23,862 nt of DNA from a virus (lineage: Duplodnaviria; Heunggongvirae; Uroviricota; Caudoviricetes). This document shows positions 9,567 to 22,809 of this stretch, piece after piece. A model generated the notes under the pieces. It searched no databases and was not told the DNA's origin. It was given only the letters and a program-made list of their open reading frames with translations. The position numbers were made by a program, and so were the translations under genes. Numbering within the stretch: position 1 is the stretch's first letter; each line of letters starts with the position of its first letter. The stretch lies in the IMG/VR virus record IMGVR_UViG_2778261619_000009; one strand, written 5' to 3'.

Positions 9567-11333
9567 ATGAACACCACACTGACACCCGCAGATCTCGATC
9601 CCCGTCGGCAGGCCATGCTGCTGTACTTTCAGGGATACCGCGTAGCCCGCATTGCTGAAATGCTGGGCGAGAAAGTTGCAACCGTTCACAGCTGGAAAAA
9701 ACGCGACAAGTGGGGTGACTATGGGCCGCTGGATCAGATGCAGCTCACCACCGCCGCACGCTACTGCCAGCTCATCATGAAGGAGCACAAAGAAGGGAAA
9801 GATTTCAAAGAGATTGACCTGCTGGCGCGCCAGTCTGAGCGCCACGCGCGGATCGGCAAGTTTAACAATGGCGGCAACGAAGCCGACTTAAACCCTAACG
9901 TCGCCAACCGCAACAAAGGCCCACGCCGTCAGCCTGAAAAGAATGTTTTCACCGATGAACAAATTGAGAAGCTGGAAGAAATTTTCCATTCCTCCATGTT
10001 TAACTACCAGCGCCACTGGTGGGAAGCCGGAAAAACCAACCGCATCCGCAACCTGCTAAAGTCACGCCAGATCGGCGCGACCTTCTATTTTGCCCGTGAG
10101 GCCCTGATTGACGCCCTGCTTACCGGACGTAACCAGATTTTCCTTTCTGCCAGTAAGGCACAGGCTCACGTCTTTAAGCAGTACATCATCGATTTCGCCA
10201 AAGAAGTCGAGGTGGAGCTGAAAGGTGATCCGATGGTGCTTCCTAACGGGGCCACGCTTTACTTCCTCGGCACCAATGCCCGCACGGCCCAGAGTTACCA
10301 CGGCAACCTGTATCTGGATGAATATTTCTGGATACCGAAATTCCAGGAGCTGCGCAAAGTGGCTTCCGGTATGGCTATTCACAAAAAATGGCGACAGACC
10401 TATTTTTCCACGCCATCCAGCCTGACACACAGTGCTTATCCGTTCTGGTCCGGTGCGCTGTTCAACCGAGGGCGCAACAAAGCCGATAAGGTGGACATCG
10501 ACCTGTCCCACAGCAATCTGGCCCCCGGCCTGCTGTGCGCAGACGGGCAGTACCGCCAGATAGTCACTGTGGAAGATGCGGTGCGCGGCGGATGTAACCT
10601 GTTCGACCTTGACCAGTTGCGCATGGAGTACAGCCCGGACGAATACCAGAATCTGCTGATGTGTGAGTTCGTGGACGATCTCGCGTCCGTATTCCCGCTC
10701 AGCGAGCTGCAGGCGTGCATGGTAGACAGCTGGGAAGTCTGGACCGACTTTCATGCACTGGCGCTGCGCCCGTTTGGCTGGCGCGAAGTGTGGATCGGTT
10801 ATGACCCGGCAAAAGGTACGCAAAACGGCGACAGCGCCGGATGCGTGGTGGTGGCACCGCCAGCCGTGCCGGGTGGTAAGTTCCGCATTCTTGAGCGTCA
10901 CCAGTGGCGCGGGATGGACTTCCGCGCCCAGGCTGACGCCATCAAAAAACTGACCGAACAGTACAACGTGACATACATCGGTATCGACTCAACCGGCGTC
11001 GGTCACGGGGTTTACGAGAACGTGAAAGCGTTTTTTCCTGCCGTCCGGGAGTTTGTCTACAACCCCAACGTTAAAAACGCCCTGGTACTCAAGGCCTACG
11101 ACATTATTAGCCACCGCCGCCTGGAGTTTGACGCCGGGCACACCGACATTGCGCAGTCATTCATGGCAATCCGTCGCGCCACCACCGCCAGTGGCAACCG
11201 CCCAACCTATGAAGCCAGCCGCAGCGAAGAAGCCAGCCACGCAGATTTGGCCTGGGCAACGATGCACGCACTGTTTAACGAACCGCTGCAGGGCGAAGCC
11301 GCCAATACCAGCAACATTGTGGAGATTTTCTGA
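9567..11333 (+). CDS. P: Terminase large (ATPase) subunit (P2 gpP-like)
   Basis: 588-aa ORF; deviant Walker A (LLKSRQIGAT), Walker B (LYLDEYFW), C-terminal nuclease-like domain; size as P2 P (~590 aa). Confidence 0.9.
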   Translation: MNTTLTPADLDPRRQAMLLYFQGYRVARIAEMLGEKVATVHSWKKRDKWGDYGPLDQMQLTTAARYCQLIMKEHKEGKDFKEIDLLARQSERHARIGKFNNGGNEADLNPNVANRNKGPRRQPEKNVFTDEQIEKLEEIFHSSMFNYQRHWWEAGKTNRIRNLLKSRQIGATFYFAREALIDALLTGRNQIFLSASKAQAHVFKQYIIDFAKEVEVELKGDPMVLPNGATLYFLGTNARTAQSYHGNLYLDEYFWIPKFQELRKVASGMAIHKKWRQTYFSTPSSLTHSAYPFWSGALFNRGRNKADKVDIDLSHSNLAPGLLCADGQYRQIVTVEDAVRGGCNLFDLDQLRMEYSPDEYQNLLMCEFVDDLASVFPLSELQACMVDSWEVWTDFHALALRPFGWREVWIGYDPAKGTQNGDSAGCVVVAPPAVPGGKFRILERHQWRGMDFRAQADAIKKLTEQYNVTYIGIDSTGVGHGVYENVKAFFPAVREFVYNPNVKNALVLKAYDIISHRRLEFDAGHTDIAQSFMAIRRATTASGNRPTYEASRSEEASHADLAWATMHALFNEPLQGEAANTSNIVEIF

Positions 11334-12058
11334 TGCACTCAACCCCAACTAACCTCATGACCACCGCCAGCCTGCCTGTAGATCGCCCTTTCTTTGCTTA
11401 CCAGCATGAATGGAACAGTGGCGCACGCAGCAGAAACCGCGTGCTTACAAAAATGCGTCAGGCTGGCGCGGATTTCTTTTTCGCCTACGAAGCCCTGAAC
11501 GATGCACTGCACACCGGACGCAACCAGATTTTTCTGGGCTGCACCCCGGCATCAGCCCTGACCGTCAAAACCTATATATCAGCTTTTTTAAGTGAGGCAG
11601 CAGCCTGGACGCATCTTGGGAAAATAAAATCAGGTAAAGCGCATCTGGAACTCCCAAACGGTGCGGTCATTTATTTTATCGGGCCGGAAAGTCTCGCTGC
11701 CGCGCTCCATGGAAACGTCTACGTGTCAGAGTATGCCTGGGCTGACTCCCCCAAAAATATGATTGCGCTCGCCAAAAGCCTGTCCATGCACGCGCGCTAT
11801 CACGCTACCTACTACACCACCCCAAGCCCCAGCCCGGAAGCATGGCAGGAATACAAGAATCTGATCGCCCGCAACAGCACTACCTGCATGACCTTTACCG
11901 CTGATGACGCTGCAGCATCCGGGGCTACGCTCGCAACCGGAGCCGCGCTCTTTGATGATGAATGGCTGAATGACATGAAAAAAGAATTATCACCGGAGGA
12001 CTGGAAAATGCTGTTTATGTGCGAATGGCCCCAGGCTGACAAGGAGCAGGCGGCATGA
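11333..12058 (+). CDS. Truncated, degenerate paralogue of the terminase ATPase domain (extra gene between P and Q)
   Basis: 241-aa ORF; ATG overlaps the P stop (TGATG) and its stop overlaps the Q start (ATGA). Aligns by eye to P residues ~140-370 (FFFAYEALNDALHTGRNQIFL vs FYFAREALIDALLTGRNQIFL; LPNGAVIYFIG vs LPNGATLYFLG) with Walker A/B positions altered (KMRQAGAD, VYVSEY). Confidence 0.6.
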   Translation: MHSTPTNLMTTASLPVDRPFFAYQHEWNSGARSRNRVLTKMRQAGADFFFAYEALNDALHTGRNQIFLGCTPASALTVKTYISAFLSEAAAWTHLGKIKSGKAHLELPNGAVIYFIGPESLAAALHGNVYVSEYAWADSPKNMIALAKSLSMHARYHATYYTTPSPSPEAWQEYKNLIARNSTTCMTFTADDAAASGATLATGAALFDDEWLNDMKKELSPEDWKMLFMCEWPQADKEQAA

Positions 12059-13095
12059 GCAAACGTAAAAACAAGAACAACCGCGCAGCGGTGGATCACA
12101 ACGCAGAATCTGGCGGCGCTGCGGCAGAGGCGTTTAGCTTTGGCGACCCGGTGCCGGTGTTAGACCGACGCGAATTGCTGGACTACGTGGAATGCGTGCA
12201 GATGGACCGCTGGTATGAGCCGCCGGTGAGCTTTGACGGACTGGCGCGGACCTATCGCGCTGCCGTGCATCACAGTTCACCAATTGCGGTGAAATGCAAC
12301 ATTCTGACCAGTACCTACATCCCTCACCCGCTGCTCAGCCAGCAGGCTTTTTCACGTTTTGTGCAGGACTATCTGGTATTTGGTAACGCCTACCTGGAGA
12401 AACGCACGAACCGCTTCGGTGAAGTTATCGCCCTTGAGCCTGCTCTGGCAAAATACACCCGACGCGGGTTAGACCTGGATACCTACTGGTTTGTGCAATA
12501 CGGTATGACAACCCAGCCGTATCAGTTCACGAAAGGCAGCATTTTTCATCTGATGGAACCGGACATCAACCAGGAGATCTACGGCCTGCCCGGTTATCTT
12601 TCTGCCATTCCGTCAGCCCTGCTCAACGAGTCCGCCACGCTGTTCCGCCGTAAGTATTACATCAACGGCAGCCATGCAGGCTTCATCATGTATATGACCG
12701 ATGCCGCGCAGAACCAGGAGGATGTGAACAACCTCCGCAACGCGATGAAAAGCGCCAAAGGCCCTGGCAACTTCCGCAATCTGTTTATGTACTCGCCTAA
12801 CGGCAAAAAGGACGGACTTCAGATTATCCCGTTGTCAGAAGTCGCAGCGAAGGATGAGTTTCTGAATATCAAGAACGTGAGCCGTGATGACATGATGGCT
12901 GCGCACCGCGTGCCGCCGCAAATGATGGGGATTATGCCTAATAATGTCGGGGGATTTGGTGATGTGGAAAAGGCCAGCAAAGTCTTTGTCCGAAACGAGC
13001 TAATTCCGCTACAGAAGCGGCTGCAAGAACTTAACCAATGGGTTGGTGAAGAGGTAGCTCGCTTTGAATCATATTGTCTAGAACCAAGGGAATAA
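12055..13095 (+). CDS. Q: Portal protein (P2 gpQ-like)
   Basis: 346-aa ORF; FSFGDPVPVLDRRELLDYVEC, ESATLFRRKYYINGSHAGFIMY and KVFVRNELIPLQ match my recollection of P2 gpQ (344 aa). Confidence 0.9.
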   Translation: MSKRKNKNNRAAVDHNAESGGAAAEAFSFGDPVPVLDRRELLDYVECVQMDRWYEPPVSFDGLARTYRAAVHHSSPIAVKCNILTSTYIPHPLLSQQAFSRFVQDYLVFGNAYLEKRTNRFGEVIALEPALAKYTRRGLDLDTYWFVQYGMTTQPYQFTKGSIFHLMEPDINQEIYGLPGYLSAIPSALLNESATLFRRKYYINGSHAGFIMYMTDAAQNQEDVNNLRNAMKSAKGPGNFRNLFMYSPNGKKDGLQIIPLSEVAAKDEFLNIKNVSRDDMMAAHRVPPQMMGIMPNNVGGFGDVEKASKVFVRNELIPLQKRLQELNQWVGEEVARFESYCLEPRE

Positions 13096-13139: not shown

Positions 13140-13979
13140 TTAGATGGCTGGGTTGATGTAATCACCCACGTCATCACCTTGTAGACTAATGTACTCAACC
13201 CGCCACTGGTCCATTCGCCGTAACGCATACAGACTGAATTCAACGTCAGGAACTGCGTTACAAGACATAAGCGCAATGAGTTCACTTTCAGACGCATCAC
13301 CATGGTACGTTACAAAGAACTCTTCAATTTGTGTTGCCGCCTGCTCTGCCTCTGCTCTTGCATCCGGCCCACCATCTATAGAATCATAGACAAGATGAAT
13401 ATTCAGTTCGTAAGGTACACCTTCCTCTAAATCATTGAAACGATCTTCGCCTAAATCAAAGAATATACCTATCAAATAGACTGAATGTTTGCTAATTATC
13501 TTTGCGAGTTCTTTTTCGAATCTAAATTTCTTTGTGTCGAAAGCTCTTAGCCTACTCTCAAAAACATCAGGAAAGGCAGGTCGCCCATAGCGGGCAGCAA
13601 GCCATTGTTTTAAACCTTGCTTTTCCTCAGGGGATATTTGGCAAGTAGGGTCACATCCCACACACGTGAAACGTTCTTTATCAATACGAAATTTGTTGTC
13701 ATGTCTTAGTTCAATTGCATTTTGATTCGCGTCACGCGCTTGCTCTAAATGCAAATGCAGAACTCTGGGATGTTTAGCACGTGCATAATTGCTGGCCCCC
13801 TTAATGAGAGGGCCAGCAATAAGCTCAACGCTGGGTTCAGAAGAGCTTTGCAAGTCACAATCATGACTGATCACGACAACTTTAACGCCTATTTCCTCTT
13901 CGGTAAGAATACCCAAAGAAACCGCATCCTCATGCCTAAGAACCTGGCCTTGGCGCCATGCTGTAGCAATATCAACCAT
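13140..13979 (-). CDS. Cargo protein C, 279 aa, unknown function (contains HDC...CVGCDPTC cysteine cluster)
   Basis: ATG at 13979, 10 nt after the ORF B stop; AT-rich codon usage unlike flanking phage genes; no recognisable family motif by eye. Confidence 0.7.
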   Translation of the reverse strand: MVDIATAWRQGQVLRHEDAVSLGILTEEEIGVKVVVISHDCDLQSSSEPSVELIAGPLIKGASNYARAKHPRVLHLHLEQARDANQNAIELRHDNKFRIDKERFTCVGCDPTCQISPEEKQGLKQWLAARYGRPAFPDVFESRLRAFDTKKFRFEKELAKIISKHSVYLIGIFFDLGEDRFNDLEEGVPYELNIHLVYDSIDGGPDARAEAEQAATQIEEFFVTYHGDASESELIALMSCNAVPDVEFSLYALRRMDQWRVEYISLQGDDVGDYINPAI

Positions 13980-13989
13980 AAATGACTAT

Positions 13990-14631
13990 CTACTCCTTCA
14001 TTCCTGAACCAGGTATAGAAACAGACGACATCCACCCGTCAGTTGGCGTGCTTTTGCTCCCAGTTAAATTCGCTTTTACACCTGCAATTTTAAGCTGGCG
14101 AGCTTCATCGATTAAGAGATTCACAGACGACTTCCAGTCATCGCCTCGCTTAATCAAATCAATAATAGATAAGCCGTCAAACGCTTTCATTTTTGACATC
14201 AACTTAGCATTTTCTACTCCTGCTTTGTTAAAGCGATCGGCTAATCTACTGAGTTCAATGATGTAACCAGCTTTCCCAATATCATCAGGCTGACTGTCAC
14301 CGGATAACCATTTGTATAATGCTTGCCTAGTAATACCCAAATCTTTAGCCAGTTCTGACATTGATGGAGAAAGAGTATCCCTAACATTACTTAAATGTTC
14401 TGAAATTGTCCTGATATCAACAGGGTCATTATCTGTATCCCCATGATTTTCAAGTTTAGATAACCCAAAATGGACTTTAGGTTGTACAAAACCACGCCAC
14501 TGGTTTACATCCTTCACAGAATAGCTCGCTCCTGTTCCACTCAGGAACATAGAGGTTGCAACAAATAACGCTCCAGCAATAGGAGCTAAACCAGGAGTCC
14601 CATAGCAACTACCAGTCATGGATTGACGCAT
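13990..14631 (-). CDS. Cargo protein B, ~213 aa: N-terminal hydrophobic segment plus XRE/Cro-type helix-turn-helix
   Basis: Track ORF starts at GTG 14658; trimmed to ATG 14631 preceded by GGGGAGGTG. Hydrophobic stretch LAPIAGALFVATSMFL (residues ~15-30) and HTH SMSELAKDLGITRQALYKWLSG (residues ~90-110). Confidence 0.7.
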   Translation of the reverse strand: MRQSMTGSCYGTPGLAPIAGALFVATSMFLSGTGASYSVKDVNQWRGFVQPKVHFGLSKLENHGDTDNDPVDIRTISEHLSNVRDTLSPSMSELAKDLGITRQALYKWLSGDSQPDDIGKAGYIIELSRLADRFNKAGVENAKLMSKMKAFDGLSIIDLIKRGDDWKSSVNLLIDEARQLKIAGVKANLTGSKSTPTDGWMSSVSIPGSGMKE

Positions 14632-14648
14632 ATTACACCTCCCCGGTG

Positions 14649-15455
14649 TTATACCCACCTATTAATGGCATGTTGGGATACCATTTTATTAAAGCTTTCC
14701 TTTACAACACCATGTAGTGAATTGAACTGTTGCTCAATTGAATCTATTTCTGGCGGCATGTTTCCTTCAACATAATGGTCTGTATCAATAATTCCATGCC
14801 AAAGAGCCTTGTCGCTCCTGAACCGCTCAAGCATTTCAACCCCAAAGGGCAAGATATCTGGAGGAAAACTCAACTGACCAAACATCTTATGCAAACGAGT
14901 TACTAAAAAGCCAGTACTTATAACAGGACCAACATTTGTTTGGAAAACCATCTCGTTAACCGATTGTATCGGAGATAAATCCAAATCTACACCATGTAAG
15001 CCATTGCAAAGGTACTGCTCAATCTTTTCACCCTCACTAGGTATTACGGCATCCAGATACCTCAAACCAAGTCTTGTCAAAAGGGCTGGGTTAGCATGTT
15101 CTATTACGACAGACAATCCTTCCATCAATGCTTTAAAGAACGGTTCATGTTCTTTGTAATCAGTCGTCTGGAAAGTAATAAAATCGTTACCCAAGACAAA
15201 ACCTGAAGTCTTAGTGATGTCAGACATATACCACTGCTGGACCATTTCAAAAGATGGCTGAGGCGATTCACCGGGCGTATTAACATCAAACACCATTTGC
15301 ATTGCCTCTCTTCTTTCAAAGAGTGGATAGCCCCTTAAACGCAATGCTTCCTGAATGTCATCGACATACTTTTTCATCGCCTTGATAGGCGTAAACTTAA
15401 CTTGCGCCAGCACATAGTATACGGGTGCATTGGACATGCGATTGCTGTCACTCAT
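14649..15455 (-). CDS. Cargo protein A, 268 aa, unknown function
   Basis: ATG at 15455 preceded by AGGAGGG (spacing 4); AT-rich; first gene of the three-gene operon. No nucleotide-binding or nuclease motif recognised. Confidence 0.7.
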   Translation of the reverse strand: MSDSNRMSNAPVYYVLAQVKFTPIKAMKKYVDDIQEALRLRGYPLFERREAMQMVFDVNTPGESPQPSFEMVQQWYMSDITKTSGFVLGNDFITFQTTDYKEHEPFFKALMEGLSVVIEHANPALLTRLGLRYLDAVIPSEGEKIEQYLCNGLHGVDLDLSPIQSVNEMVFQTNVGPVISTGFLVTRLHKMFGQLSFPPDILPFGVEMLERFRSDKALWHGIIDTDHYVEGNMPPEIDSIEQQFNSLHGVVKESFNKMVSQHAINRWV

Positions 15456-15570
15456 GTCGCCCTCCTAATTTTAAAATCCATCAATAACGTTCTTTTCAAT
15501 ATAGTTTACATCTTGGTTGACACATTAACCATAACAAAGTTCCATCAAAACATCTTTTGATAACTTTATA
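15456..15570 (-). promoter_or_regulatory. AT-rich leader/promoter region of the cargo operon
   Basis: ~115 bp AT-rich sequence between the cos-like site and the ORF A start, with a TAAAAT -10-like hexamer on the minus strand and a strong SD; exact promoter not resolved. Confidence 0.3.
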
Positions 15571-15589
15571 TTTAAACTACCGGGCGCGC

Positions 15590-15608
15590 GCTCGTATCCC
15601 CGCCACGC
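15590..15608. other. cos: Candidate cos (cohesive-end) site of the prophage
   Basis: Minus-strand reading GGCGTGGCGGGGATACGAG within a short GC-rich island in an otherwise AT-rich intergenic region. From memory the P2/186 19-nt cohesive ends begin GGCGAGG/GGCGTGGCGGGGAAAGCA..., so the first 13 nt match 186; location is the expected A-to-Q interval. Confidence 0.5.
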
Positions 15609-15653
15609 CTGCCCGCTTTATGTAGTGGTTTTCATGCACCTGCATGATCTACG

Positions 15654-15677
15654 CAAAAGCCCGCCAGTTCTGGCGGG
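15654..15677 (-). terminator. Intrinsic terminator of the SOS-regulated small-ORF/DinI-like operon
   Basis: GC-rich hairpin gcccgccag / ctggcgggc; on the minus strand it is followed by UUUUG, ~135 nt downstream of the DinI-like stop. Confidence 0.6.
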
Positions 15678-15813
15678 CCTTAGCAAAAACGATCCTCAAA
15701 CGATCATGCGATCTCATGCGGCATAGACATGCACTACAGAGCTAACGCCTCGCAAGGACTCGTTGTTCAACCTTGCTGACGCCAGAAGCAAGTTCAGACG
15801 CCAGCAACGTTTC

Positions 15814-16047
15814 TTAATGCAGCCAGCTGTCGTCTTCCCACACCTTCTGCATAATTTTCATCACTTGTTTTCTTTCTTCGTCCTGTTGCAGCCCGGTCAG
15901 TTCCACACCGTTAGAGCTACCTTTGCGGATACGAATTACCGTTTTGGGATACAGGGGGCGCAGATTGCGGTAAAGCTCGGATTCAAGGGCGTCCAGGGTA
16001 GACTGGCTAATCTTCTGCTCTTTATCGATCATTATTTCAATGCGCAT
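15814..16047 (-). CDS. dinI: DinI-family protein (DNA-damage-inducible protein I-like)
   Basis: Track ORF 15814..16119 trimmed to ATG 16047 (MRIEIMIDKEQ...DALESELYRNL...VWEDDSWL), 77 aa, GAGGTG SD; closely resembles E. coli DinI (MRIEVTIAK...DALAGEL...). Confidence 0.8.
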   Translation of the reverse strand: MRIEIMIDKEQKISQSTLDALESELYRNLRPLYPKTVIRIRKGSSNGVELTGLQQDEERKQVMKIMQKVWEDDSWLH

Positions 16048-16057
16048 AAAAGTCACC

Positions 16058-16246
16058 TCAGCTGATGACATCCATTGAGCGGTTGTATTCGTGGCTTCTG
16101 ATTTTTGCCATGAGTTCATCAGTCAATTCAGAAACCCACTGCAGAGCCAGCCCCTTCTCTTCATCACTACACTCACTAGCCGCTACAAGCTTAAGAAAAA
16201 AATCAATGCGCTGGAGCTTCAAAGACTCCAAAAAAAAGTCCTGCAT
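16058..16246 (-). CDS. Small SOS-regulated protein (62 aa), first gene after the LexA box; possible Tum-like antirepressor fragment
   Basis: ATG at 16246 with perfect AGGAGG SD; track ORF 16058..16348 is a 5' extension that would run through the LexA box. Function inferred only from position. Confidence 0.5.
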   Translation of the reverse strand: MQDFFLESLKLQRIDFFLKLVAASECSDEEKGLALQWVSELTDELMAKIRSHEYNRSMDVIS

Positions 16247-16287
16247 CTTTCCTCCTATGACACCACAAGCAATACTGTATACATAAC

Positions 16288-16307
16288 CACTGTTTATAAT
16301 TACAGTA
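16288..16307. promoter_or_regulatory. LexA operator (SOS box) overlapping the promoter of the small-ORF/DinI-like operon
   Basis: cactgtttataattacagta = CTGT-N8-ACAG with AT-rich spacer, ~40 bp upstream of the small ORF; -35-like TTTACA (minus strand, 16325..16330) and a TATACT -10-like hexamer overlap the box. Confidence 0.7.
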
Positions 16308-16399
16308 TATAATAATCTTACTGATGTAAAACGTTTTTTTACGTTCATCAGCCTAATATGCCTGGTATTATTAAGAGCACGAATTGTTAACCTGCGTAA

Positions 16400-18814
16400 T
16401 CAATACAGGTTCCGCCACTTATCATCTTCCTGCAAACGCTGGTTCCGATAGAAGATACGCAGGCCTGCTCCTGACGGAATACTGCCGCCGCGAATGAGTA
16501 AATCGACCTCTTTCTCGCTGCCATCAAATCCTCTGGACTTCAGTTCATAGACGAGCTGCTGTCGTTGATGGTCAGTAATTCGCTGTTTGTAGTCTCTACG
16601 CCGTTTCGGTTTCACCAGGCGTAACCTTGCAGCCAGTTCCCGGCGCTCTTTTTTGTTCATACTGTGCAGGTAATCGTGCAACTCCTTGTCATCCATGCGG
16701 GTGATATCCGTTCTGGTATCCCCATCAGCTGATTTGTCTTTCCCTTGTTGGTACAAATTTTCAGCAAGGGGACAGTTATTGCCACGAGTCCAAGGGGCGC
16801 AAGCGCCCTGGTCGGCTGCCGCCTCCTGAACGTCAACGGCCTTACGAACCATTTTCCACTTCACGGCATGAGTGCAGATCTTGCCCTCTGCAATAGGTGA
16901 CCAGATGCCATAAATACGAATGCCGTGATCGCCATAGGCGGTCGGCTCTTCGTTGATTTCATAAGCAGTTCTGATGAGGTGATATTTGCGGGGAACCAGT
17001 ACGCCACCCTGCTTCATGATGTAGGTGGCAAAACAACCAGCATCAGCAGCAGCCAGAATGGCATCAAGGCGCGGGTTATCCAGTACCGGCGCACCTGCTT
17101 TTTTGTCCCCCTGTTGCCTTGCCGCCTGACCAGCCAGCAATCGCAGTTCACGGTAAGCCTGACGCCCCGGAATGCCAAAGAAGCGGAATTGCTGAACACG
17201 ATGCAGAGACGCCCAGGCATTAACGTATTCAGCATTATCACGCAGGGATTTCCCCGTTTCCTTGCTGATCTCGCCAGCCAGACCACGACCGTCAATGTTC
17301 TTACTGATATATTTCGCGATGTAGCTTGTCGGCGTTCCTTTGCGCGGGTTAATCAACTCAGACTTAAAGCGCGGCCCAGTGTTATTGCCCAGCTCCTCGC
17401 GGTCTTCACGGATGGCAAACTTACGCAGTAATGCAGTAATGGCACGGCGGTCTTTTTTGCGCATGAAACACAACAGGTGCCAGTGAACTGTGCCGTCATG
17501 ATGCGGCTCAGCCACCCGCACGCCATACCAGCGCAACCCGGCTTTGTGCATCGCCTTACGAAATGCAGCAAACATGCCGACCAGATAATCGCTGCTTTGT
17601 CTTACCGTCGCGTTTGTCCAGGTCGGGTTTGGTCTGCCGTTATTTAGCGTGGAATGGAAACGCGACGGACAGGTGATAGTGTAGAAAACGGCGCAGTCAC
17701 CGCGCATTTCCGCGATAAGCTCCAGACCTTTAACACAGGCCATCATCTCATTGCGGCGATGCGCAGGGTTGCTGCTGCTGGCGTTTACCACATCCTCCAT
17801 GTCCAGCGTGTCGCCGTCTTCGTTCACCAGTTCATGAGAACGGAAAAACTCCAGCGACTTACGGCGCTGCTCACGTTTATGCATCACGGCTTCATAGCTG
17901 ACATAGGGAGATGCTTTTTTGCTGACCAGACAGACAGCACGTAACTGCTCTTCCCGCCATTCGCAACGCATCTTCCATAATTTCCGATACCACCAGTCGG
18001 CGCACAGCATACGCGCCAGCGAACCCGGAATGAGTTCATAGGGCACAGGTTTGCGGCGGTTTCTTTTCCGGCGGAGTTGCTCAAACGCAGGCGGTATGAC
18101 ATCCAGTCGCAGGGTTTCTGCTGCCACCTTTTCCCATGTCTTGCGGATTTCTTCCGGCTTAACATCATCGGAGGCGTACAAATCACCACAAGCGGCATCA
18201 AGACACATGCTCATATGCGCAGCGACAAGGGTGGACAGGCGTTTCACCTGATCCTGACTCATTTCAGGCAGGATCAGCAGACCGTCCAGCCCTTCATGGC
18301 TTGCCATAAAACGAAAAGATGCAGATAGCTGGCTGTCGCGTACATGCTCCAGTCGTTCCAGGCATGGCTTAATCGTCTCACGCAAATAGCGGGAATAAGC
18401 CTTTGGCCTGCCCAGGTTGCTGAAGTATTTAATACGTTGCATCAGCGGCTTGCTGATATGGGAAGGCTGGGCGTTGACATCCGCCAGAATGACCATGTCC
18501 GGATTAAAACGCTGCTGCTCATGCGCCAGCTTTGCCCGGCTAATTAGCTTATCCTGCTCCATTTCGCGCTGGACAGGATCACGGGATTCATTAAAGAAAT
18601 AACGCTCCCAGACCTGATCACTCAGTGCCTCGCGGCGCAGTTGTTCCTGCTCGTTATCGGCAGCGTACAAAGTGATCAGGTTTGAAAGCGCAGAAACCGG
18701 CGCAACTTCCGCCGGGTCCAGATAAGGGTTAATGGCCTTTTTCGGGCTGTTCCATGAGAATGCTGCGGCAGCCTCGTTAAAGCCGCAGCAGTTGTTCATA
18801 TCGGCATGACTCAT
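16400..18814 (-). CDS. A: Replication initiation endonuclease, rolling-circle type (P2 gpA-like)
   Basis: 804-aa ORF, ATG at 18814 (ATGA overlap with dam stop); histidine motif GTVHWHLL and tyrosine active-site pair in [11 protein letters not shown], typical of P2 A-family initiators. Confidence 0.9.
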
Positions 18815-21719: not shown

Positions 21720-21844
21720 GATGCAACATTCCTCGTTTAATGATGATTAATCAGGACGAATACGGATCGTTTGTATTTTGTGAACACCATAAACATACGA
21801 TCGTACAATGAAATCGTCAAGATAAAAGTTCACTTGGAGTGACC
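21720..21844. promoter_or_regulatory. Lysis-lysogeny switch region (face-to-face promoters and operators) between apl and cI
   Basis: Intergenic region between divergent apl and cI; two copies of an ATACG(G)ATCGT-containing palindromic motif (21759..21777, and 21794..21810 with perfect TACGATCGTA); TACAAT -10-like hexamer at 21803..21808. Confidence 0.5.
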
Positions 21845-22414
21845 ATGAATTTGGAGAAAGGCGGACGAGGCGCTATAGAGCGCATGGTAGAAGCTTATGG
21901 ATTCAAAACTCGACAGGCGTTGTGCGATCATTTAGGAATCTCTAAAAGTACACTCGCCACACGCTACATGCGTGACTCATTCCCAGCAGAATGGGTAATC
22001 CAGTGCGCCCTTGAAACGGGCACCTCGCTTAATTGGCTCACAACCGGACATGGTTCAAAGCAAACTTCAGGTAATACAAATACTATGGAAGTTGCTAAAT
22101 ATGTATTATCTGATGGTGCCTTGCGTGAAGACGGTTTTTATATTTTTGATAAGGGATTTCTACCCTCTACGTTTAAAAAACCTTTTGTCATCACAGATAA
22201 CAATTCTGAATTTATTTGTGATAAAGAATTTGATGATATACGTGATGGTAAATGGGTAATAAGTATTGATGGCGAAGTAACGATCCGTGACATTACTCGT
22301 TTACCCGGTGGAAGAATCTTCGTCGAGGGTGGAAACAGAGCCTTCGAATGTAAGATAGAAGACATTGAAATAATTGGTAAAATTATAAGTTTAACAGTCA
22401 AGTATGTTAAATAG
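21845..22414 (+). CDS. cI: CI-type immunity repressor (phage 186 CI-like)
   Basis: Track ORF starts at GTG 21839; ATG 21845 with GGAG SD gives 189 aa; N-terminal HTH (RQALCDHLGISKSTLATRY) and separate C-terminal domain; 186 CI is ~192 aa. Confidence 0.75.
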   Translation: MNLEKGGRGAIERMVEAYGFKTRQALCDHLGISKSTLATRYMRDSFPAEWVIQCALETGTSLNWLTTGHGSKQTSGNTNTMEVAKYVLSDGALREDGFYIFDKGFLPSTFKKPFVITDNNSEFICDKEFDDIRDGKWVISIDGEVTIRDITRLPGGRIFVEGGNRAFECKIEDIEIIGKIISLTVKYVK

Positions 22415-22429
22415 TACCGGGAGGAAACT

Positions 22430-22621
22430 ATGCTTGGTAAGGTATTTTTTGTGGTTTTGTCATGTTCTTTGTTATTAAACCCACTAACTACCTATGCTAG
22501 AAATTATCCCTGCTCAGGGAAAAAGGGAGGTGTTTCTCACTGTACCTCAGATGGCAAATTCGTTTGCAATGATGGAACTATTAGTAAATCCAAAAAAATC
22601 TGTACTAAAAACTCACGATAA
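22430..22621 (+). CDS. Small secreted cysteine-containing protein (63-aa precursor), AT-rich moron
   Basis: GGAGG SD 5 nt before ATG; N-terminal signal-peptide-like segment ([23 protein letters not shown]) followed by a ~40-aa Lys-rich peptide with four cysteines; very AT-rich relative to neighbours. Confidence 0.55.
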
Positions 22622-22809
22622 CTTTTGCTTTTATATCTGCGTCTAAAATAAAAATGAGCCGCAGGTTAACCGCAAAAGTTACATGCTCACATAGCAAAAA
22701 GAATAGCCAACTTCATTATGGCTTCAGTGAGATGTATGGTCGTAGGATTTCATACATTGACACTGGTTATACATACAGTAAAAATGCTCTCTACTGGAGG
22801 GCATTTTTT

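Follow-up and report, generated by a model that had tools for sequence, protein, structure and literature searches.

The closest described relatives of the locus analysed here are the tum operons of P2-family prophages. In phage 186, the LexA-repressed p95 promoter drives the expression of Tum, which inhibits DNA binding by the immunity repressor CI (annotation of the 186 record; PMC7708051), and direct binding of CI, as PMC3121763 and PMC7708051 cite it from Shearwin et al. 1998, has been shown only for this 186 protein. The 186 Tum is a single polypeptide of 146 aa, and internal starts in the same gene also give DinI-like products, the short forms carrying the annotation 'modulates SOS induction' in the 186 record. 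Lemire et al. (PMC3121763) point out the resemblance of Tum to a fusion of an antirepressor with DinI and, citing Bunny et al. 2002, mention that the tum coding region of Fels-2 and PSP3 is split by a stop codon. For PSP3, the same article assigns the antirepressor activity to the upstream gene, in a remark quoted from a personal communication of G. E. Christie, and the PSP3 record describes tumA as 'similar to 5' end 186 tum; UV induction of prophage' and tumB as 'similar to dinI and 3' end of 186 tum'.

Genetic evidence for a prophage of this type comes from the 2025 Phollow study (PMC12055606), in which the gene called 'tum' (ECHS_RS04495) was deleted in frame in the E. coli HS prophage DuoHS. 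The 'tum' deletion and a lexA(Ind-) allele each abolished mitomycin C-induced lysis and the formation of virion foci (PMC12055606). A comparator outside the P2 family is provided by the dinI-gfoA/gftA operons of the Salmonella Gifsy prophages, which resemble the present locus in placing a DinI homologue and a small antirepressor, directed against a non-cleavable repressor, under the control of LexA (PMC3121763). The likeness is drawn at the level of the operon: the Gifsy prophages are lambdoid and have a repressor of another family, and in their operons dinI comes first, which is the opposite of the gene order found here.

In this work we describe the tumA-tumB region of a prophage contained in a 23,862-nucleotide stretch of viral DNA (the window). 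The tumA-tumB pair is the already known split form of phage 186 tum, and the module is an ordinary one that has been tested experimentally in a near-identical prophage. Very probably the region is a LexA-controlled SOS operon of the prophage with a naturally split tumA-tumB, in which TumA would disable CI and TumB would have a modulating role.

Prophage setting and distribution

The window is a prophage of the P2 family and of the 186/Fels-2 type. In addition to cI, which is on the plus strand, it carries an integrase gene, and the strand opposite cI contains apl-like and cII-like genes, a Dam methylase gene and replication gene A. Two of these genes define the position of the operon and its predicted target:

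16400-18814, minus strand: replication gene A open reading frame, 804 aa, with its 3' end at 16400, upstream of the tum promoter
21839-22414, plus strand: cI, the 186-type immunity repressor and predicted target of TumA, with 96% identity to DuoHS CI and a 186-like cI/apl/cII arrangement

The tumA-tumB pair lies downstream of gene A in a prophage that has a 186-type CI, and the same order, from gene A to the tum region, is seen in 186, PSP3, Fels-2 and HS. PSP3 likewise has tumA and tumB as separate genes of one operon, which comes after gene A and has a LexA box. An 801-bp stretch around tumA-tumB has matches in 56 phage records, and, of 5426 complete E. coli genomes, 1143 contain the region, in most cases with 95-99% identity; some of them carry the module in up to four copies. 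At the E. coli matches the RefSeq labels read, in order, 'replication endonuclease', 'hypothetical protein' and 'DinI-like family protein', and the arrangement of tumA and tumB is kept across genera. The cargo open reading frames downstream gave only a weak helix-turn-helix match in Pfam and PADLOC searches.

The tum promoter and its LexA box

Upstream of tumA, the following elements were read from the sequence:

16325-16330, minus strand: -35 hexamer TTTACA of the p95-like tum promoter, 17 nt upstream of TACTGT
16307-16302, minus strand: -10 hexamer TACTGT, which is the left half of the LexA box, as in the p95 layout
16288-16307, minus strand: predicted LexA (SOS) box TACTGTAATTATAAACAGTG, of the form CTGT-N8-ACAG
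16273-16292, minus strand: possible second, imperfect LexA box CAGTGGTTATGTATACAGTA (GTG for CTG), overlapping the first by 5 nt

An earlier note on this DNA had proposed a CTGT-N8-ACAG LexA box at 16288-16307 that overlaps -35/-10-like hexamers, and both elements are borne out: the box is the sole one of its kind in the window and is conserved at all ten loci compared, and the hexamers form a TTTACA-17-TACTGT promoter of p95-like layout in which the box overlaps the -10. The box TACTGTAATTATAAACAGTG agrees with the palindromic LexA consensus at 16 of 20 positions, in keeping with a gammaproteobacterial SOS box. Within the window the count by itself is weak statistics (one CTGT-N8-ACAG against 0.27 expected, with 23% of shuffles reaching one; 0.16 expected for the stricter TACTGT-N8-ACAGT pattern in the window), and the significance of the box therefore comes from its conservation among relatives. 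The loci compared were those of the window, DuoHS, Fels-2, Klebsiella phi4.1, Yersinia MLG42, two ESSI-2-type phages, Yersinia YenM_06.16-2, PSP3 and 186, and at every one of them a TACTGT-N8-ACAGT box is located 38-68 nt before the tum or tumA start codon, within flanks that are divergent. In 9 of the 10 loci a TT(T/C)(A/C)CA hexamer is found 17-18 nt upstream of the box, and the left half of the box thereby also serves as -10 hexamer.

The annotated p95 promoter of 186 is TTCACA-18-TACTGT, which the layout in the window resembles, and the equivalent site is labelled a putative LexA binding site in the 186 record. The promoter and LexA box of Fels-2 and HS are those of the window save for one spacer base, whereas in PSP3 the box is 40 nt before the start codon, compared with 61 nt in the window. 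A generic sigma-70 consensus scan of positions 15400-16500 flagged no promoter, because TACTGT agrees with TATAAT at just 3 of 6 positions and is thus a weak -10 hexamer; the promoter is accepted here because of its homology to p95 and not by consensus. LexA would be expected to bind at 16288-16307 and to repress this promoter. The overlapping CAGTGGTTATGTATACAGTA agrees with the consensus at 15 of 20 positions and is a possible LexA site; among the ten loci, its TA(T/C)ACAGT half-site is kept only in the Fels-2-type promoters, and the spacer is variable.

Elsewhere in the window, a second LexA-boxed promoter is predicted in front of int (22757-22785), and with it the SOS input in this immunity type may be doubled.

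TumA is a member of the Tum/TumA antirepressors

The first gene of the operon and its ribosome-binding site are:

16251-16256, minus strand: ribosome-binding site AGGAGG of tumA, read from the sequence, with the ATG 4 nt downstream
16058-16246, minus strand: tumA, encoding a 62-aa antirepressor of the Fels-2/DuoHS type (PHROG 698; assigned by homology and HS genetics), with a TGA stop at 16060-16058

The 62-aa open reading frame preceded by AGGAGG had been recognised before, and it is indeed read from 16246 to 16058 behind AGGAGG at 16256-16251. Its product is identical to E. coli HS ECHS_RS04495 at 61 of 62 residues and to Fels-2 STM2728 at 59 of 62. The longer versions of TumA in the databases (87-96 aa) are start-codon over-extensions, and in the window the ATG of the longer, 96-aa open reading frame (16348) sits upstream of the -35 hexamer.

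No Pfam family matches the 62-aa protein, which falls in PHROG 698, a family of stand-alone proteins with 63 residues (63 positions) and no assigned function. Pairwise BLASTP of the 62-aa sequence with 186 Tum gave no alignment, and the homology of TumA and Tum is thus based on profile methods. Residues 1-70 of 186 Tum match PHROG 698 with E = 6.7e-6 and in register (7-44 vs 7-44), and two further families, PHROG 8554 and PHROG 1993 (to which PSP3 TumA belongs), are matched by both the window open reading frame and residues 1-70 of 186 Tum. In a family-against-family comparison with hhalign, for which 45 sequences of the 62-aa family from an exhaustive HMMER search were set against 84 sequences of the 186-type N-terminal half, residues 2-44 of the two families aligned with each other at a probability of 96% and E = 4.8e-9. 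Identity between the window protein and 186 Tum over the TumA core is 20%, and the common core reads E-x5-(Q/E)R(I/V)-x6-L-x6-C-x3-(D/E)(K/R)-x-(L/I)A(L/I)-x2-(W/L)-x2-E(L/I). These profiles make the 62-aa protein a homologue of 186 Tum residues 2-44 and place it among the Tum/TumA antirepressors. The PSP3 TumA is in another subfamily (PHROG 1993), with about 20% identity to the TumA of the window.

AlphaFold2 models TumA as a two-helix hairpin (pLDDT 89), with helices at residues 2-23 and 28-61. A Foldseek search of the PDB with this model returned generic helical hairpins only, the best with an E-value of 1.8, and a profile search of PDB sequences with TumA returned nothing.

For the function of tumA, the HS genetics are directly relevant. 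Primers NHR24 and NHR28 in the supplement of PMC12055606 correspond to window positions 16244-16266 and 16038-16060 with no mismatch, and therefore the deletion removed only the 62-aa gene, fusing its ATG to its TGA and leaving the DinI-like gene and its ribosome-binding site intact. Since TumA is identical at 61 of 62 residues and CI at 96% between the window and DuoHS, the functional conclusion reached in DuoHS carries over to the window at little risk.

TumB and the probable 3' end of the operon

A DinI-like gene with its own Shine-Dalgarno sequence had been claimed 10 nt after the first gene, and it is present as tumB, with 77 codons, a GAGGTG and a Pfam DinI match (3e-23). The features from the tumA stop codon onward are:

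16054-16059, minus strand: ribosome-binding site GAGGTG of tumB, read from the sequence and overlapping the tumA stop codon
15814-16047, minus strand: tumB, encoding a 77-aa DinI-family protein (Pfam DinI), with its ATG at 16047, after a 10-nt spacer from the tumA stop, and its stop at 15816-15814
15769-15811, minus strand: strong hairpin directly after the tumB stop, without a U-run (minimum-free-energy and centroid folds)
15655-15681, minus strand: predicted intrinsic terminator with a GC-rich stem of 8-11 bp and UUUU (fold and sequence)

The TumB protein matches Pfam DinI (PF06183) with an E-value of 3.1e-23 and 82.3 bits, against a cutoff of 24.2, across profile positions 1-63 of 63, and it matches E. 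coli DinI (PDB 1GHH) over residues 1-75 with E = 1.6e-6. It differs from the Fels-2 DinI-family protein at one residue of 77, and the PSP3 TumB is a close homologue when the translations are compared by eye. The alignment to 186 Tum that had been recommended for both genes pairs tumB with residues 71-145 (41% identity) and tumA, through profiles, with residues 2-44, so that the N-terminal part of 186 Tum is homologous to TumA and the C-terminal part to TumB. By this alignment, TumB is the equivalent of the C-terminal half of 186 Tum. Its family membership suggests that TumB probably acts on RecA filaments, tuning the strength or duration of the SOS response, rather than on CI. Non-polar deletion of the dinI homologue did not significantly alter induction in the Gifsy-1 and Gifsy-3 prophages (PMC3121763).

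The region 3' of tumB has a fold with z = -4.0 and two strong hairpins. A terminator was said to come next in the earlier note, and one is present at 15681-15655, though it does not adjoin the gene: it is approximately 135 nt past the stop, with the other hairpin in between. The hairpin at 15681-15655 is plausible as a terminator and as the likely end of the SOS operon. A simple terminator scan did not call it, probably because, with G-T/A-T pairs allowed, the stem reaches into the T-run, and an Rfam search of the whole window, including the structured 3' region, found no RNA family. A hairpin at the junction of the genes (16069-16052), which takes in the stop codon of tumA and the ribosome-binding site of tumB, was considered as a coupling or attenuator element and dropped, its folding being no better than that of shuffled sequence (z = -0.85). 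In Fels-2 and HS there is a third gene behind the DinI-like gene, which the window does not have.

Two genes or one

The earlier note had left open whether the pair is a split tum or two genes, and it drew attention to a zone at 16058-16119 in which both frames are open and to a summed length of about 140 aa, close to that of Tum. The zone exists, and at 62 nt, or about 20 codons, it is unremarkable; the summed length is 139 aa, compared with 146 aa for 186 Tum. The evidence favours tumA and tumB as two genuine, conserved separate genes and not as a frameshifted pseudogene, so that what survives of the split-tum idea is a conserved split and not a gene broken by a frameshift. In the window the two are parted by a TGA stop, a 10-nt spacer and a change of frame, and are thus not a fused Tum of the 186 type. 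Fels-2 (STM2728/STM2726.1) and HS (ECHS_RS04495/ECHS_RS04500) agree with the window in the lengths of both genes (189 and 234 nt) and in the 10-nt spacer, and the gap in PSP3 is 3 nt. Among homologues the open reading frames are separate and conserved: a DinI stretch is absent from all 181 proteins of the 62-aa family, 66 of which are cluster representatives from an exhaustive HMMER scan of 1.84 billion proteins. In the case of the 186-type N-terminal half, the proteins are mostly stand-alone, 63-78 aa in length and called 'Tum protein', and 5 of 120 listed proteins run into DinI, whereby the fused 186 gene looks like the exception. No DinI gene follows the LexA-boxed tumA-like gene of the ESSI-2-type phages and of the Yersinia phage vB_YenM_06.16-2, an arrangement that fits TumA as an autonomous effector and TumB as an accessory.

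These observations bear on two alternatives in which the two frames were, or still are, parts of a single protein. A once-fused 186-type tum could have been broken by a frameshift or stop, leaving one or both halves non-functional; in line with this, the two open reading frames occupy adjacent frames, which are both open over a short zone, and together come close to the length of 186 Tum, and fused forms are present in the 186 lineage. Such decay is extremely unlikely, however, for two open reading frames that each have their own ribosome-binding site and start codon, whose split is kept with an identical spacer in Fels-2 and E. coli HS, and which occur at mostly 95-99% identity in those 1143 complete genomes; PHROG 698 is made up of stand-alone proteins, 0 of the 66 HMMER representatives is fused, even the 186-type N-terminal half is mostly a stand-alone protein of 63-78 aa, and the HS orthologue of the first gene is functionally required. 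A programmed +1 frameshift within 16058-16119 would instead make a TumA-TumB fusion of approximately 143 aa the real antirepressor, and we consider this exceedingly improbable. Upstream of the tumB ATG, the DinI frame, which is +1 relative to tumA, stays open for some 24 codons, and the homology of TumA to Tum stops at residue 44, near the start of the frame overlap, but by a rough estimate an open stretch of that length would occur by chance in roughly 1 of 3 cases. The overlap, read by eye, has no slippery or stimulatory motif, and the sole local hairpin is the non-significant one at the junction; the LexA box is retained in tumA phages without a DinI gene, and the reading-frame relationship across the 3-nt gap of PSP3 is a different one.

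A further alternative concerns which gene is the effector, with the DinI-like protein causing induction and the 62-aa open reading frame serving as a mere leader or coupling element. It is the DinI-like half only that has a curated family match, and whole Tum proteins are called DinI by phage annotation pipelines. This proposal is nonetheless very unlikely to be correct, given that the in-frame deletion in HS of the 62-aa gene alone, with tumB and its ribosome-binding site kept, abolishes induction, that antirepressor activity is reported for the upstream gene of PSP3, that phages with tumA alone exist, and that the annotation of 186 gives the truncated DinI-like products of tum a modulating and not an inducing role.

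A model for SOS induction

The reading of the region as an SOS operon with two separate genes agrees with the proposal that this is an SOS module related to 186 Tum, both open reading frames being homologous to Tum and the promoter copying the p95 layout. Its anatomy, homologies and conservation, and its near-identity to genetically tested orthologues, are directly observed; for LexA binding here, the contact of TumA with CI and the role of TumB, we infer the following sequence of events. In an undamaged lysogen, host LexA would be positioned on the box, over the -10 hexamer and the start site, where it would occlude RNA polymerase and keep the operon silent, a state that the DuoHS genetics support. 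Upon DNA damage, RecA would become active, LexA would undergo self-cleavage, and tumA-tumB would be transcribed. The 62-aa helical hairpin of TumA would then bind the 186-type CI and block its binding to the operator, as suggested by the biochemistry of 186 Tum, and the early lytic promoter would be derepressed, leading to lytic growth as indicated by the DuoHS genetics. TumB, as a member of the DinI family, would modulate RecA filaments.

One important consideration is which part of CI might be recognized by TumA. Across ten phages, TumA identity follows the identity of the CI N-terminal DNA-binding domain (r = 0.86, Mantel p = 0.0002), compared with r = 0.34 for the CI C-terminal domain. The CI proteins of Fels-2 and the window are 38% identical overall, with a conserved N-terminal domain; between DuoHS or the window on one side and Fels-2 on the other, residues 1-46 of TumA are 98-100% identical, whereas the CI N-terminal domains are 70% and the C-terminal domains 27% identical. 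Both DuoHS-type and Fels-2-type prophages are reported to respond to the loss of LexA repression. The domain correlation together with the shared TumA allele suggests an N-terminal-domain target and action across prophages, and it is conceivable, if rather doubtful, that TumA recognizes the CI N-terminal DNA-binding domain and not the oligomerization domain, so that one allele could inactivate CI proteins whose C-terminal domains are less than 30% identical. With so few phages, which moreover are not independent of one another, this idea is a lead only. If it is true, SOS induction of one P2-family prophage could induce co-resident relatives in trans.

Significance

The antirepressor route of SOS induction is already known, and possible novelty is confined to the tracking of the CI N-terminal domain by TumA and to the LexA-boxed int promoter. 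Nevertheless, the 62-aa product of a key prophage-induction gene is a 'hypothetical protein' in RefSeq and has no Pfam family, and its partner is recognized only as DinI-like. Prophages of this kind are very common in E. coli, Salmonella and Klebsiella, and it is tumA that decides whether they wake after DNA damage. With tumA linked to 186 Tum, to PSP3 TumA and to the 'tum' of E. coli HS, the inducibility of such prophages becomes predictable from sequence.

Correspondence of TumA with the CI domains

Between the window and Fels-2, the CI repressors diverge very unevenly along their length, in that the N-terminal domain of the CI shared by the window and the E. coli HS prophage DuoHS (21839-22414) is 70% identical to that of Fels-2 (L004, 31891-32523) and has in common with it the invariant stretch RDSFPAEWVIQCALETG, whereas the C-terminal domains are only 27% identical despite near-identical TumA proteins. 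Across 10 phages, TumA identity follows that of the CI N-terminal domain (r = 0.86) far more closely than that of the C-terminal domain (r = 0.34).

Promoter and gene content of the tum operon

A possible, imperfect second box, CAGTGGTTATGTATACAGTA (16273-16292, minus strand), shares 5 nt with the main LexA box of the tum promoter. The TA(T/C)ACAGT half-site of this second box is kept in the Fels-2-type promoters (the window, Fels-2, DuoHS, Klebsiella phi4.1, and Yersinia MLG42), while the bases between its half-sites differ among them; in the promoter comparison the half-site is absent from the 186, PSP3, and ESSI-2 types.

The operon also varies in gene content. In many relatives the DinI-like gene is followed, ahead of the terminator, by a third gene that is missing from the window; the LexA-controlled promoter would drive it together with the rest of the operon. 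Carriers include the following:

Klebsiella phage 4LV2017 (L012), 1052-1729, a 225-aa lipoprotein-like ORF
Fels-2, STM2726
E. coli HS, ECHS_RS25360
186, orf97

In the phages ESSI2_ev015, Cronobacter ESSI-2, and Yersinia vB_YenM_06.16-2 (L007, L008, and L009), a LexA box accompanies the tumA-like gene, but no DinI-like gene lies downstream of it. The record of Cronobacter ESSI-2 carries no annotation at all for its tumA-like ORF.

Additional ORFs flanking the portal gene

Two further regions, on either side of the portal gene, hold additional ORFs:

13140-15455, minus strand, three cargo ORFs (268, 222, and 279 aa) bounded by the terminator of the tum operon and by the portal gene
11333-12058, plus strand, a 241-aa ORF flanked by the genes for the terminase ATPase (9567-11333) and the portal protein (12055-13095)

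The cargo ORFs occupy the P2-family moron hot spot, and none was matched by Pfam or PADLOC, apart from a weak helix-turn-helix match in the 222-aa protein. The 241-aa ORF overlaps both flanking genes at its start and stop junctions and is matched by Pfam Terminase_6N at 1.2e-14; since it shares 33% identity with the ATPase-domain region of the neighboring terminase (residues 145-368), it is a stand-alone terminase ATPase-domain paralogue. Of the 1207 E. coli genomes with a match to the terminase-portal junction, only 21 have this ORF.

A LexA-type box within a putative int promoter

The region leading into int contains the following features:

22430-22621, a 63-aa signal-peptide-like ORF separating cI from int
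22757-22785, plus strand, a strong sigma-70-like promoter, TTGACA-17-AAAAAT (10/12 matches)
22763-22778, plus strand, a second LexA-type box, CTGGTTATACATACAG, placed exactly within the 17-nt promoter spacer
22811, plus strand, the likely int start, the promoter lying ~25 nt upstream of this probable true start

Only two AT-rich CTG-N10-CAG sites occur across the window, of which CTGGTTATACATACAG is one, and the sequence does not differ between the window and DuoHS. The intervening 63-aa ORF distinguishes the window from 186 and Fels-2, where int lies directly next to cI. Together, the LexA-type box inside the promoter spacer and the setting apart of int from cI suggest, at the level of sequence, that int of the window has its own SOS-controlled promoter.
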